Origin: Escherichia coli
GTDB lineage: Bacteria; Pseudomonadota; Gammaproteobacteria; Enterobacterales; Enterobacteriaceae
Assembly: GCF_003334255.1 (NCBI RefSeq)
Contig: NZ_QOWU01000126.1
DNA: 3,221 nucleotides
Reading direction: 5' to 3' (one strand)
The stretch's first letter is position 1. Every line of letters begins with the position of its first letter. A program made the translations under genes and the position numbers. The notes under the pieces were generated by a model. That model was not told the DNA's origin. It saw only the letters and a program-made list of their open reading frames with translations, and ran no database searches. Of the stretch, positions 1 through 3,221 are shown piece by piece.

Positions 1-77
1 AGTTATCGTGAGAGTAATTCATCGGCACGTTAAATCATATCAGGCGTAATACCACAACCCTTAAGTTAGCGCTTATG
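1..77. mobile_element. Terminal 77 bp of an IS186-like insertion sequence (IS4 family), element truncated by the window start; terminus at position 77
   Basis: Reverse complement of 1..77 reads CATAAGCGCTAACTTAAGGGTTGTGGTATTACGCC..., which matches my recollection of the IS186 terminal inverted repeat and adjacent sequence. The flank immediately outside (78..90, GGATCACTCCCCG) is GC-rich, the kind of target IS186 prefers. Identification is from memory, not a search. Confidence 0.7.
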
Positions 78-99
78 GGATCACTCCCCGCCGTTGCTC

Positions 100-252
100 T
101 TACTCGGATTCGTAAGCCGTGAAAACAGCAACCTCCGTCTGGCCAGTTCGGATGTGAACCTCACAGAGGTCTTTTCTCGTTACCAGCGCCGCCACTACGG
201 CGGTGATACAGATGACGATCAGGGCGACAATCATCGCCTTATGCTGCTTCAT
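100..252 (-). CDS. hokC: HokC (Gef) type I toxin, 50 aa small membrane peptide of the Hok/Gef family
   Basis: The last 50 codons of the 100..342 minus-strand ORF translate to MKQHKAMIVALIVICITAVVAALVTRKDLCEVHIRTGQTEVAVFTAYESE, which I recognise as HokC/Gef: one hydrophobic transmembrane segment and a short polar tail. ATG is at 252..250 and stop TAA at 102..100 on the - strand. An AGGAGA Shine-Dalgarno lies 8-13 nt upstream (revcomp of about 258..268). Confidence 0.9.
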   Translation of the reverse strand: MKQHKAMIVALIVICITAVVAALVTRKDLCEVHIRTGQTEVAVFTAYESE

Positions 253-309
253 TGCTCTCTTCTCCTTGACCTTACGGTCAGTAAGAGGCACTCTACATGT
301 GTTCAGCAT
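100..309 (-). CDS. mokC: MokC, 69 aa overlapping reading frame (modulator of killing) whose translation is coupled to hokC
   Basis: In-frame ATG at 309..307 extends the hokC frame N-terminally (MLNTCRVPLTDRKVKEKRA + HokC), with GAGG about 9 nt upstream. The ORF track's 80 aa version starts at a further upstream GTG (342), which I do not favour. The nested mok/hok arrangement is the established architecture of hok/sok loci. Confidence 0.8.
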   Translation of the reverse strand: MLNTCRVPLTDRKVKEKRAMKQHKAMIVALIVICITAVVAALVTRKDLCEVHIRTGQTEVAVFTAYESE

Positions 310-355
310 ATAGGAGGCCTCGGGTTGATGGTAAAATATCACTCGGGGCTTTTCT
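301..355 (+). ncRNA. sokC: SokC antisense RNA (antitoxin of the hok/sok type I system); ends approximate
   Basis: Lies antisense to the mokC translation initiation region (mokC ATG at 307..309, SD at about 319..322). A hairpin with stem 317..324 paired to 342..349 (8 bp including two G-U pairs in RNA) is followed by TTTTCT at 350..355, an intrinsic-terminator-like 3' end. The 5' end near 301 is from recall of the locus, not derived from the sequence. A TTGACC -35-like hexamer is at 266..271 but I could not find a convincing -10. Confidence 0.55.
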
Positions 356-408
356 CTATCTGCCGTTCAGCTAATGCCTGAGACAGACAGCCTCAAGCAC
401 CCGCCGCT

Positions 409-414
409 ATTATA
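409..414 (-). promoter_or_regulatory. Candidate -10 hexamer (TATAAT on - strand) for the mokC/hokC mRNA
   Basis: Revcomp of 409..414 is a perfect TATAAT, about 95 nt upstream of the mokC ATG and about 150 nt upstream of the hokC ATG, consistent with the long structured leader typical of hok mRNAs. No good -35 match at 16-18 bp spacing. Positional inference only. Confidence 0.3.
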
Positions 415-534
415 TCGCTCTCTTTAACCCATTTTGTTTTATCGATTCTAATCCTGAAGACGCCTCGCATTTTTGTGGCGTAATTTTTTAATGATTTAAT
501 TATTTAACTTTAATTTATCTCTTCATCGCAATTA

Positions 535-563
535 TTGACGACAAGCTGGATTATTTTTGAAAT
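535..563 (+). promoter_or_regulatory. Candidate sigma70-type promoter (TTGACG -35 at 535..540, 17 bp spacer, TGAAAT -10 at 558..563) in the AT-rich nhaA upstream region
   Basis: Hexamer match and spacing read directly from the sequence. nhaA is known to have two promoters (P1 NhaR/Na+-dependent, P2 stationary-phase), but I cannot assign which this is, if either. Confidence 0.25.
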
Positions 564-760
564 ATTGGCCTAACAAGCATCGCCGACTGACAACAAATTA
601 ATTATTACTTTTCCTAATTAATCCCTCAGGAATCCTCACCTTAAGCTATGATTATCTAGGCTTAGGGTCACTCGTGAGCGCTTACAGCCGTCAAAAACGC
701 ATCTCACCGCTGATGGCGCAAATTCTTCAATAGCTCGTAAAAAACGAATTATTCCTACAC

Positions 761-766
761 TATAAT
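761..766 (+). promoter_or_regulatory. Candidate -10 hexamer (perfect TATAAT) about 72 bp upstream of the nhaA start
   Basis: TATAAT at 761..766; the sequence 17 bp upstream (TAAAAA at 738..743) is a poor -35. Could be one of the two known nhaA promoters; not resolved from sequence. Confidence 0.3.
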
Positions 767-771
767 CTGAT

Positions 772-799
772 TTTAACGATGATTCGTGCGGGGTAAAAT
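772..799 (+). promoter_or_regulatory. Second candidate nhaA-proximal promoter (TTTAAC -35-like at 772..777, 16 bp spacer, TAAAAT -10 at 794..799)
   Basis: Hexamers read from the sequence; the predicted start would be about 30 nt upstream of the GTG. Weak -35. Listed as an alternative to the 761..766 element. Confidence 0.25.
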
Positions 800-823
800 A
801 GTAAAAACGATCTATTCACCTGA

Positions 824-829
824 AAGAGA
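824..829 (+). promoter_or_regulatory. Ribosome-binding site of nhaA (AAGAGA)
   Basis: Purine-rich AAGAGA sits 8 nt upstream of the GTG at 838. Confidence 0.5.
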
Positions 830-837
830 AATAAAAA

Positions 838-2004
838 GTGAAACATCTGCATCGATTCTTTAGCAGTGATGCCTCGGGAGGCATTATTCTTATCATTGCC
901 GCTATCCTGGCGATGATTATGGCCAACAGCGGCGCAACCAGTGGATGGTATCACGACTTTCTGGAGACGCCGGTTCAGCTCCGGGTTGGTTCACTCGAAA
1001 TCAACAAAAACATGCTGTTATGGATAAATGACGCGCTGATGGCGGTATTTTTCCTGTTAGTCGGTCTGGAAGTTAAACGTGAACTGATGCAAGGATCGCT
1101 AGCCAGCTTACGCCAGGCCGCATTTCCAGTTATCGCCGCTATTGGTGGGATGATTGTGCCGGCATTACTCTATCTGGCTTTTAACTATGCCGATCCGATT
1201 ACCCGCGAAGGGTGGGCGATCCCGGCGGCTACTGACATTGCTTTTGCACTTGGTGTACTGGCGCTGTTGGGAAGTCGTGTTCCGTTAGCGCTGAAGATCT
1301 TTTTGATGGCTCTGGCTATTATCGACGATCTTGGGGCCATCATTATCATCGCATTGTTCTACACTAATGACTTATCGATGGCCTCTCTTGGCGTCGCGGC
1401 TGTAGCAATTGCGGTACTCGCGGTATTGAATCTGTGTGGTGCACGCCGCACGGGCGTCTATATTCTTGTTGGCGTGGTGTTGTGGACTGCGGTGTTGAAA
1501 TCGGGGGTTCACGCAACTCTGGCGGGGGTAATTGTCGGCTTCTTTATTCCTTTGAAAGAGAAGCATGGGCGTTCTCCAGCGAAGCGACTGGAGCATGTGT
1601 TGCACCCGTGGGTGGCGTATCTGATTTTGCCGCTGTTTGCATTTGCTAATGCTGGCGTTTCACTGCAAGGCGTCACGCTGGATGGCTTGACCTCCATTCT
1701 GCCATTGGGGATCATCGCTGGCTTGCTGATTGGCAAACCGCTGGGGATTAGTCTGTTCTGCTGGTTGGCGCTGCGTTTGAAACTGGCGCATCTGCCTGAG
1801 GGAACGACTTATCAGCAAATTATGGTGGTGGGGATCCTGTGCGGTATCGGTTTTACTATGTCTATCTTTATTGCCAGCCTGGCCTTTGGTAGCGTAGATC
1901 CAGAACTGATTAACTGGGCGAAACTCGGTATCCTGGTCGGTTCTATCTCTTCGGCGGTAATTGGATACAGCTGGTTACGCGTTCGTTTGCGTCCATCAGT
2001 TTGA
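838..2004 (+). CDS. nhaA: Na+/H+ antiporter NhaA (388 aa, 12-TM secondary transporter), GTG start
   Basis: ORF 838..2004 translates to [41 protein letters not shown]..., which I recognise as E. coli NhaA essentially residue for residue. The protein is highly hydrophobic, and the conserved Asp163-Asp164 pair (IIDDLG, codons GAC GAT at 1324..1329) of the ion-binding site is intact. Stop TGA at 2002..2004. Confidence 0.97.
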
Positions 2005-2018
2005 CAGGACGGTTTACC

Positions 2019-2046
2019 GGGGAGCCATAAACGGCTCCCTTTTCAT
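2019..2046 (+). terminator. Intrinsic-terminator-like hairpin between nhaA and nhaR (probably partial, allowing read-through)
   Basis: GGGAGCC at 2020..2026 pairs perfectly with GGCTCCC at 2033..2039 (7 bp GC-rich stem, 6 nt loop ATAAAC), followed by TTTTCATTGTT from 2040. It starts 15 nt after the nhaA stop and ends before the nhaR SD. The short, interrupted T-tract suggests incomplete termination. Confidence 0.45.
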
Positions 2047-2052
2047 TGTTAT

Positions 2053-2060
2053 CAGGGAGA
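2053..2060 (+). promoter_or_regulatory. Ribosome-binding site of nhaR (AGGGAGA)
   Basis: Strong SD-like AGGGAGAGA ends 3-5 nt before the ATG at 2064. This supports ATG 2064 as the start rather than the TTG at 2046 used by the ORF track. Confidence 0.55.
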
Positions 2061-2063
2061 GAA

Positions 2064-2969
2064 ATGAGCATGTCTCATATCAATTACAACCACTTGTATT
2101 ACTTCTGGCATGTCTATAAAGAAGGTTCCGTGGTTGGCGCAGCGGAGGCGCTTTATTTAACTCCACAAACCATTACCGGACAGATTCGAGCGCTGGAAGA
2201 GCGCCTGCAAGGCAAATTATTTAAACGCAAGGGACGTGGTCTCGAACCCAGCGAGCTGGGAGAACTGGTCTATCGCTATGCCGATAAAATGTTCACCTTA
2301 AGCCAGGAAATGCTGGATATTGTGAACTATCGCAAAGAATCCAATTTATTGTTTGACGTTGGCGTGGCTGATGCACTTTCCAAACGCCTGGTCAGTAGCG
2401 TACTTAACGCCGCAGTGGTAGAAGGCGAGCCCATTCATCTTCGCTGCTTCGAATCCACCCACGAAATGCTGCTGGAGCAATTAAGTCAGCATAAACTGGA
2501 TATGATCATTTCTGACTGTCCGATAGACTCTACGCAGCAGGAAGGCCTGTTCTCCGTGAGAATTGGCGAATGTGGCGTGAGTTTCTGGTGTACAAATCCA
2601 CCACCAGAAAAACCGTTCCCGGCTTGTCTGGAAGAACGGCGACTTTTGATTCCTGGGCGACGTTCAATGTTAGGGCGCAAATTGCTTAACTGGTTTAACT
2701 CCCAGGGATTAAACGTAGAAATCCTCGGCGAGTTTGATGATGCCGCTTTGATGAAAGCTTTTGGTGCGATGCACAATGCAATCTTCGTTGCCCCAACGCT
2801 TTATGCATATGACTTTTATGCCGATAAAACTGTCGTAGAAATTGGTCGCGTCGAGAATGTGATGGAAGAGTACCATGCTATTTTTGCTGAGCGGATGATT
2901 CAGCACCCGGCGGTACAGCGAATCTGCAATACGGATTATTCTGCGCTTTTTAGTCCAGCGGTGCGTTAA
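2064..2969 (+). CDS. nhaR: LysR-type transcriptional activator NhaR (301 aa), Na+-responsive regulator of nhaA
   Basis: From ATG 2064 the frame translates to [53 protein letters not shown]..., which I recognise as E. coli NhaR. It has an N-terminal helix-turn-helix typical of LysR-type regulators and a C-terminal co-inducer domain. Stop TAA at 2967..2969. The ORF track's TTG start at 2046 adds 6 residues and overlaps the upstream hairpin, so I reject it. Confidence 0.96.
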
Positions 2970-2976
2970 TCGGCAG

Positions 2977-3001
2977 CTCCCCCAAAGTTAAGGTGGGGGA
3001 G
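2977..3001. other. GC-rich hairpin immediately downstream of the nhaR stop (no U-tract)
   Basis: CTCCCCCA at 2977..2984 pairs with TGGGGGAG at 2994..3001 (8 bp stem, 9 nt loop). No T-run follows on either strand, so it is not a canonical intrinsic terminator; it could be an RNA stability element or a rho-dependent termination region. Confidence 0.3.
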
Positions 3002-3144
3002 ATAGATTAGTTGTACATTACCACGATTTTGACTCGGCTCATTATTTGCCCGCTTGAGACATTGTTTCCATATGTACGCGGGCGAATAAATAGAGGAATC
3101 TGATTACTTCCTTCATGGGGATGCTGAAAAGAGTAGTAATTGCT

Positions 3145-3221
3145 GGTAATGACTCCAACTTATTGATAGTGTTTTATGTTCAGATAATGCCCGATGACTT
3201 TGTCATGCAGCTCCACCGATT
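3145..3221. mobile_element. IS1 terminus (terminal inverted repeat GGTAATGACTCCAACTTATTGAT and adjacent sequence), element truncated by the window end
   Basis: 3145..3167 matches my recollection of the IS1 terminal inverted repeat. The following sequence encodes the InsB C-terminus on the - strand (see next feature). The putative 9 bp target flank just outside the element is 3136..3144 (GTAATTGCT). Confidence 0.85.
3160..3221 (-). CDS. insB: IS1 transposase InsB, C-terminal fragment (partial, continues beyond the window)
   Basis: Minus-strand translation of 3219..3163 gives ...SVELHDKVIGHYLNIKHYQ followed by stop TAA (revcomp of 3160..3162), which matches the InsB C-terminus as I recall it. 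The ORF track did not list it because it is truncated at the window edge. Confidence 0.85.
   Translation of the reverse strand, partial: SVELHDKVIGHYLNIKHYQ

Follow-up and report, generated by a model that had tools for sequence, protein, structure and literature searches.

A layered control region between hokC/sokC and nhaA in Escherichia coli, with a conserved NhaR/P1 core and a lineage-specific upstream start

The DNA between the hokC leader and the nhaA start codon (positions 421 to 837 of the window, the whole 3,221-nt stretch of Escherichia coli DNA analyzed here) is, with high confidence, the known composite control region that separates the hokC/sokC type I toxin-antitoxin locus from the nhaAR operon, organized in four layers. 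In unstressed minimal-medium cultures, the main start upstream of nhaA is at 573, and the promoter for this start, together with its restriction to non-B2 lineages, is the one under-described item of the region. The nhaA control region is otherwise already known and well studied, and because nhaA is the textbook case of a Na+-responsive LysR-type activator set against H-NS, the analysis adds little beyond bookkeeping. Its uses are a coordinate-level map that links public start-site data to sequence elements, the definition of a minimal NhaR/P1 module from about 105 bp conserved across Enterobacteriaceae, and the placement of the strongest start in a lineage-specific segment outside earlier B2/non-B2 comparisons. 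From the hokC side to nhaA, the proposed layers would be as follows.

402-484: promoter of hokC, with its minus-strand start at 402, and flanking DNA
485-591: lineage-specific AT-rich junction with a strong extended -10 promoter (start 573), presumably of the sigma-70 type
592-732: Escherichia-specific segment with a putative sigma-S-type promoter (start 660), probably P2
733-837: Enterobacteriaceae-wide core, where NhaR would occupy a TCG-N7-CGA box and a second box over the P1 -35

Window positions 55-3221 match MG1655 (NC_000913.3) positions 16706-19872 with 100% identity, so a record coordinate equals the window coordinate plus 16651. This match and the MG1655 annotation show the locus to be the K-12-type hokC–nhaA–nhaR locus, as an earlier interpretation made from the letters of the DNA (the sequence-only reading) had proposed from the hok leader and nhaA. 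The annotation, taken together with the Rfam hok/sok leader described below, identifies 421-837 as the sokC/hokC–nhaA intergenic region. The features that frame it are the following; all except the ribosome-binding region are taken from the MG1655 annotation.

Up to 80: end of IS186
100-252, minus strand: hokC
100-309, minus strand: mokC
301-359, plus strand: sokC
825-840, plus strand: ribosome-binding region (AGAGA) and nhaA GTG; in an alignment of 12 Enterobacteriaceae, A825 is invariant, G826 and A827 are nearly invariant, and the GTG is conserved
838-2004: nhaA, with a GTG start
2064-2969: nhaR
From 3145: IS1

The right end of the window (3145-3221), about 175 bp past nhaR, is the terminal inverted repeat of IS1 (IS1A in MG1655). 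At the left end, the IS186/IS421 end beside hokC (window 1-80) has the orientation opposite to that in MG1655: window 1-92 is 97% identical to the reverse complement of the other IS186 end, and collinearity with MG1655 is confined to 55-3221. The arrangement of the window is found at at least 80% coverage in 939 complete E. coli genomes, so the window probably does not derive from MG1655.

The region is strongly AT-rich, especially in 470-660, as the sequence-only reading had claimed. Its GC content is 35.0%, compared with 49.2% elsewhere in the window (z = -5.8), which makes 421-837 the lowest-GC 417-nt frame of the window; the value is 30.4% in 470-660 and goes down to 18% in 60-nt frames. 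The extreme is reached in a single run.

481-518: AT-richest run, TAATTTTTTAATGATTTAATTATTTAACTTTAATTTAT, 5% GC, with three TTTAAT hexamers that have no mapped plus-strand start after them

Promoter matches were compared with those expected by chance. The built-in consensus scan found no plus-strand promoter site in 421-837, and over the whole window it found 7 sites versus 4.9 +/- 2.6 in shuffles. A relaxed promoter scan returned 14 partly overlapping matches versus 5.8 +/- 2.6 in dinucleotide shuffles of the region, with 14 being reached in 4 of 300 shuffles. Hexamers matching TATAAT at 5 or more of six positions showed no excess (7 versus 6.3 +/- 2.0 in shuffles). With matches modestly above chance and no excess of -10 hexamers, a promoter reading made from sequence alone is weakly suggestive; it is the mapped transcription starts that establish the promoter-like elements as real, if ordinary. 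The consensus-scan matches inside the region are all on the minus strand (TTTACC-16-TAAAAT at 797-770 and TTAAAA-17-AATAAT at 776-748), both sit within the NhaR core, and no minus-strand start is listed near either of them by Kim 2012. An exact 9-mer repeat, ATCGATTCT (441-449 and 851-859), was considered as a duplicated 5' end of nhaA, and a second near-repeat shares its spacing; the local alignment was reached by 512 of 2,000 shuffles, and the repeat was therefore attributed to chance.

Transcription starts were taken from two independent data sets, both for MG1655 grown in M9 glucose: Cappable-seq (Ettwiller 2016, PMC4782308, supplementary file 1; plus-strand entries) and the map of Kim 2012 (PMC3415461, Table S1). 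Record coordinates are given in parentheses, and the scores are Cappable-seq relative read scores.

301 (16952), plus strand: score 12.4; start of sokC, in agreement with Kim 2012
368 (17019), plus strand: score 9.4
402 (17053), minus strand: start of mokC/hokC (Kim 2012)
573 (17224), plus strand: score 171
660 (17311), plus strand: score 30
775 (17426), plus strand: score 4.4
803 (17454), plus strand: score 9.6

Four plus-strand Cappable-seq starts thus fall within the 417 nt of the region, compared with 0.74 expected from the genome-wide density. The hexamers quoted in the sequence-only reading are all present (TTGACG at 535-540, a 17-nt spacer and TGAAAT at 558-563; TATAAT at 761-766; TTTAAC at 772-777, a 16-nt spacer and TAAAAT at 794-799), and the three promoter elements built from them are real, since starts 573, 775, and 803 are mapped 10, 9, and 4 nt after positions 563, 766, and 799, respectively. 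Two parts of that reading fared less well. It had expected starts to lie 5 to 9 nt downstream of the -10 hexamers, which is exactly so for only one of the four starts, and although each listed element has a start, the list missed the -10 cTATGAT (646-652) that belongs to start 660.

The mapped starts also bear on whether the promoter-like hexamers are anything other than nonfunctional chance products of an AT-rich spacer. The count of strong -10-like hexamers, which is no different from that in shuffles, would fit such an origin, as would the empty plus-strand consensus scan and the TATAAT-like hexamers at 447, 487, 495, and 509, none of which has a mapped start. However, each of the four plus-strand starts is 4 to 10 nt past a -10-like hexamer, start 573 is at the same base in both data sets, and the -10 at 794-799 is invariant across genera. 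We therefore give almost no credence to chance as the general explanation and treat the elements with starts as functional promoters.

On the hokC side, the minus-strand start at 402 confirms the -10 that had been proposed for hokC at 409-414.

402-414, minus strand: hokC/mokC promoter, with the -10 TATAAT (reverse complement of 409-414) ending 7 nt before start 402
421-484: flank of the hokC module, upstream of its promoter; 380-484 stays beside hokC in UTI89

The Rfam hok/sok leader (RF01794) matches 402-250 on the minus strand with 118 bits (E = 1e-27), and the first base of the match to the model is the mapped start itself. The locus resembles other hok/sok type I toxin-antitoxin loci (plasmid R1 hok/sok and chromosomal hokC/gef) in having an Rfam-recognized hok mRNA leader and a start with a TATAAT -10 and a poor -35. 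It differs in that only 421-484, upstream of the hokC promoter, falls inside the region under study and in that the 3' side of hokC here borders an IS186/IS421 element. The distal segment is single copy in each genome, and a repeated hok-family module was rejected on that basis. Two further plus-strand starts, at 345 (16996; Kim 2012) and at 368 (Cappable-seq), lie within or just past sokC and are antisense to the hokC leader, and Adams 2021 found a BCM-sensitive 3' end at 17039.

The strongest promoter of the region is the one for start 573.

535-573, plus strand: strongest promoter of the region, with TTGACG at 535-540, the extended -10 TG(558-559)-a-AATATT(561-566), and start A573
573-837, plus strand: leader of the start-573 transcript, 265 nt (Kim 2012)

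Start 573 is found at the identical base in the two independent maps and is the sole nhaA start given by Kim 2012 (17224, plus strand, 265-nt leader). The SMRT-Cappable-seq tables contain no entry for nhaA. For this start, the sequence-only reading had proposed an element at 535-563; the start is there, but the better-fitting -10 is the extended one at 558-566, in which TG at 558-559 is followed by a560 and by AATATT at 561-566, ending 7 nt before A573. The promoter is conserved in K-12-type strains and absent from B2 strains and E. albertii. In genomic SELEX, the sokC-nhaA spacer is listed as bound constitutively by RpoD holoenzyme, with an overlapping H-NS site (table mark "HNS"), which accords with the suggestion that AT-rich DNA of this kind is an H-NS target. 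The promoter guessed by the SELEX authors, TTAACC-17-TCTAAT (424-452), has no mapped plus-strand start after it, and the RpoD-holoenzyme target is more likely to be the start-573 promoter. Initiation at 573 would provide NhaR-independent, constitutive transcription through an unstructured 265-nt leader.

As to the structure of that leader, the folding of RNA 573-860 was no stronger than that of shuffles (z = -0.68), and 573-837 had no Rfam match at E <= 1 (the window's only match being sok) and no terminator-like site. A structured leader or riboswitch, such as the nhaA-I/II Li+/Na+ motifs, was rejected because there was neither an Rfam match nor excess folding. A related possibility is that the start-573 transcript is mainly a separate short RNA (about 280 nt long) or else an attenuated leader, ending just inside nhaA, with a regulatory role (for example, as a CyaR target). 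Its 5' end would be the strongest start of the region, Term-seq 3' ends that were classed as not Rho dependent are found at 17501 and 17504 (window 850 and 853), 12 to 15 nt into the nhaA open reading frame, and the nhaA-nhaR mRNA is pulled down by CyaR. However, no hairpin or terminator was found upstream of the 3' ends at 850 and 853, the leader has no more structure than shuffles and belongs to no Rfam family, the 3' ends could equally come from the transcripts starting at 660 or 803 or from decay or pausing, and Kim 2012 assign start 573 to nhaA. A separate RNA thus seems quite improbable, and start 573 is better read as a start of nhaA mRNA.

The surroundings of start 573 differ between lineages. 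In UTI89 (B2), the order is dnaJ, hokC, 380-484 (96% identity), an ompK-like gene, a sulfatase gene, a hypothetical gene, 592-840 (83%), and nhaA, so that a module of about 4 kb comprising the three genes lies between 484 and 592; ST131 has the same arrangement on the nhaA side.

485-591: lineage-specific segment (non-B2 E. coli), its position being taken by the 4-kb module in B2 strains; in UTI89 and ST131, homology above about 80% ends at 484 and begins again at 592

The segment 485-591 is thus specific to the non-B2 arrangement. These 107 bp contain both the AT-richest run and the strongest promoter, and they have no detectable counterpart in B2 E. coli (above about 80% identity) or in E. 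albertii. Window 403-591 is present at at least 80% coverage in 4,123 of 5,426 complete genomes. The proximal part is present in all 5,426, with the best match being merely 80 to 90% identical in 1,050 of them; the B2 examples among the matches listed cover only 592-837, with 83.5% identity. Within K-12-type strains, the 573 promoter is conserved and 733-837 is almost invariant, and 592-732 is polymorphic. Other genera lack all of 421-732: the dnaJ terminator lies upstream of about 733, and the nhaA control region is the DNA of about 110 to 190 bp between that terminator and nhaA. This modular picture of 421-837 agrees with that of Lescat 2014 (PMC4182557), who described volatile modules around nhaAR and strong B2/non-B2 divergence and who compared a 172-bp promoter region.

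As for the origin of 485-591, a decayed remnant of the last gene of the B2 module was considered. Neither the 3' end of that gene in UTI89 nor E. albertii aligned with the segment better than shuffles did, and an alignment of 509-554 with the left junction was weakly above shuffles (70 of 1,000 reach it). Natural strains carry insertions in this part of the region. In some, an IS1 at about 505 separates hokC from the start-573 promoter; in others, the IS110-family element ISSso6 is inserted at about 680, cutting starts 573 and 660 off from nhaA. In strain AST81, the sulfatase module is joined at about 598, and the proximal region is 94.6% identical to that of K-12, far closer than the B2 type.

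In K-12-type cells that are not stressed, then, the main start comes from the lineage-specific 573 promoter. It is conceivable, if doubtful, that B2 and non-B2 strains would as a result differ in NhaR-independent basal transcription of nhaAR or in a leader-derived RNA, about 280 nt long and with its 3' end at +12 to +15 of nhaA. [quoted passage not shown]

The same comparison informs the role of the AT-rich DNA. One reading of 470-660 is that it has been selected as a dedicated element for H-NS nucleation or DNA curvature and is integral to the regulation of nhaA by Na+ and pH. This would be in keeping with GC as low as 18% in 60-nt frames, with the H-NS SELEX mark on the sokC-nhaA spacer, and with the reported effect of hns on P1 (PMC6307784). 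However, no counterpart of 485-591 is detectable in B2 E. coli or in E. albertii, other genera lack the whole of 421-732, and insertions of IS1 (at about 505) and of an IS110-family element (at about 680) are tolerated in natural strains. Binding of H-NS to AT-rich mobile flanks, such as the hokC module, is in any case expected whatever their role. The sequence TCGATAAATT and its near variants represent what we take to be the high-affinity H-NS motif; at up to 2 mismatches, it was not enriched, with 9 occurrences in the window versus 4.5 +/- 2.2 in shuffles and 3 in the region. A dedicated H-NS element is therefore unlikely, and of the AT-rich DNA that the sequence-only reading had taken as a whole for nhaA control DNA, 733-837 is indeed conserved but the AT-richest core, 485-591, is a lineage-specific junction.

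A more general action of H-NS fits the composition of the region (35% GC over 417 nt). H-NS may coat the AT-rich DNA and lower the activity of P1, and NhaR with Na+ would override this effect. Such control would resemble that of H-NS-silenced promoters with an antisilencing activator of the LeuO or SlyA type in the AT richness of the DNA, the SELEX H-NS mark, and an activator overriding repression. It differs from those promoters in that the H-NS motif is unenriched here and the H-NS mark comes from genomic SELEX. Another protein, the LysR-type factor YdcI, has a ChIP-exo site upstream of nhaA.

In the literature summarized in PMC6307784, P1 of nhaA is NhaR and Na+ dependent and is affected by H-NS, and P2 is a sigma-S, stationary-phase promoter, which agrees with the NhaR/Na+-dependent and stationary-phase promoters, and the involvement of H-NS, put forward in the sequence-only reading. 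Start 660 is a candidate for the second of these.

646-660, plus strand: candidate classical P2, with the sigma-S-type -10 cTATGAT (646-652), C at -13, and start 660

A C at -13 combined with a dispensable -35 is a signature of sigma-S promoters. The mapped start at 660 is preceded by c646 and by TATGAT at 647-652, with no match to a -35. The TATGAT hexamer is conserved in four Escherichia sequences, the segment is missing from other genera, and the start lies upstream of the NhaR core. We infer that start 660 is the classical sigma-S P2.

To examine conservation across genera, nhaA loci were fetched from 80 genomes, and an alignment was built of the 330 nt that precede the start codon in 12 Enterobacteriaceae (K-12, B2 ST131, another E. 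coli, E. albertii, three Citrobacter, Kluyvera, Enterobacter, two Pluralibacter, and one further genus). Conservation in this alignment is confined to about 733-837, or about 105 bases. Its elements, together with a repeat copy upstream, are as follows.

689-702, plus strand: upstream NhaR-type repeat copy, CGTCAAAAACGCAT, a direct repeat of 736-749 (86% identity, 47 bp apart)
735-747: candidate NhaR recognition box, TCGTAAAAAACGA, with a LysR-type T-N11-A and a TCG-N7-CGA dyad; T735, C736, A741, C745, G746, and A747 invariant
761-779, plus strand: second conserved box, TAATCTGATTTTAACGA, with TATAAT at 761-766, a candidate NhaR activation site overlapping the P1 -35; T763, A764, A765, C767, T768, T771-773, C777, G778, and A779 invariant
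794-803, plus strand: candidate classical P1, with the -10 TAAAAT (kept as TAnnAT; T794, A795, A798, and T799 invariant) and start 803
799-817, plus strand: third conserved repeat, AAAAACGATCTATTC, downstream of the P1 start; G801, T802, C808, G809, A810, and A814 invariant

LysR-type regulators typically use a recognition site near -65 with a T-N11-A dyad and an activation site near -35. The first box lies 68 to 56 nt upstream of start 803 (center at about 62 nt), and the center of the second is about 34 nt upstream of the same start. The second box, through 763-779, overlaps a -35 with 3 of 6 matches (TTTTAA or TTTAAC), and start 803 is 4 nt past its -10 hexamer, which is shorter than usual. 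The TATAAT at 761-766 also precedes the weak start 775. On this arrangement, start 803 is probably the classical P1, and Na+-bound NhaR would activate this promoter, with its weak -35, its -10 at 794-799, and its start at about 803.

The first box is also supported by the PRODORIC NhaR consensus TcgtaAaAAac (quoted in PMC6307784), which is identical to 735-745; the upstream copy at 689-702 has 2 mismatches to this consensus and is found in Escherichia only. A scan for plain T-N11-A motifs, as had been advised in the sequence-only reading, gave 45 matches in the region and, in DNA this AT-rich, was uninformative without conservation; only the box at 735-747 is conserved. Repetition extends through the core: 740-754 is directly repeated at 803-817, 63 bp apart, and invariant CGA triplets are at 745-747, 777-779, and 808-810.

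Work by Carmel and coworkers from 1997 reportedly placed the NhaR footprint at -120 to -14 relative to the start codon and, in the same numbering, its contacts at G-92, G-60, G-29, and A-24. These methylation-protection contacts correspond to window positions 746, 778, 809, and 814. The four window positions carry the expected bases in four of four cases and are invariant in the alignment in four of four, so that the reported contacts and the NhaR/P1 assignment are both independently supported. As judged from conservation, 733-837 thus appears to be the minimal NhaR/P1 module. The Klebsiella nhaA start in Kim 2012 is inside dnaJ with a low read count and is uninformative on P1.

In its layout, the core resembles LysR-activated promoters, with a TCG-N7-CGA box about 62 nt upstream of the start, a second box about 34 nt upstream over a poor -35, and repeats about three helical turns apart. 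It differs from them in having a third conserved repeat past the start (799-817), and nhaR is cotranscribed downstream of its target rather than being divergent. The region as a whole is the same DNA as the E. coli K-12 nhaA P1/P2 control region (Karpel 1991; Dover 1996, 2001; Carmel 1997; via PMC6307784), and it has the NhaR consensus and conserved contact bases at 735-814. Where it departs from the summaries of that region (PMC6307784) is in the stronger start at 573, 265 nt upstream of nhaA, which is present in genome-wide maps and absent from the summaries.

Several observations concern the mRNA within and beyond nhaA. A stable hairpin at 865-888 (-11.6 kcal/mol, z = -2.7) covers codons 10 to 17 of nhaA, just downstream of the 3' ends at 850/853, which may stem from pausing, cleavage, or decay guided by a small RNA. 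The small RNA CyaR copurifies strongly with the nhaA-nhaR mRNA (MAPS ratio of 160), and the same paper also reports the interaction in RIL-seq. An RpoS-holoenzyme SELEX peak has been reported inside nhaA at 17732 (window 1081). The nhaA-nhaR spacer, reported to be the nhaR leader regulated by CsrA, contains an intrinsic terminator at window 2019-2045, made up of a hairpin and a T-run after it, and a Term-seq 3' end maps to this terminator at 18696 (window 2045). The interior of nhaA also has strong sense-strand starts at window 1374 and 1902 (record 18025 and 18553), both of which Kim 2012 give to nhaR, and an internal nhaR promoter is mentioned in the YdeO paper. The start at 18025 has a relative read score of 209, exceeding that of every start upstream of nhaA.
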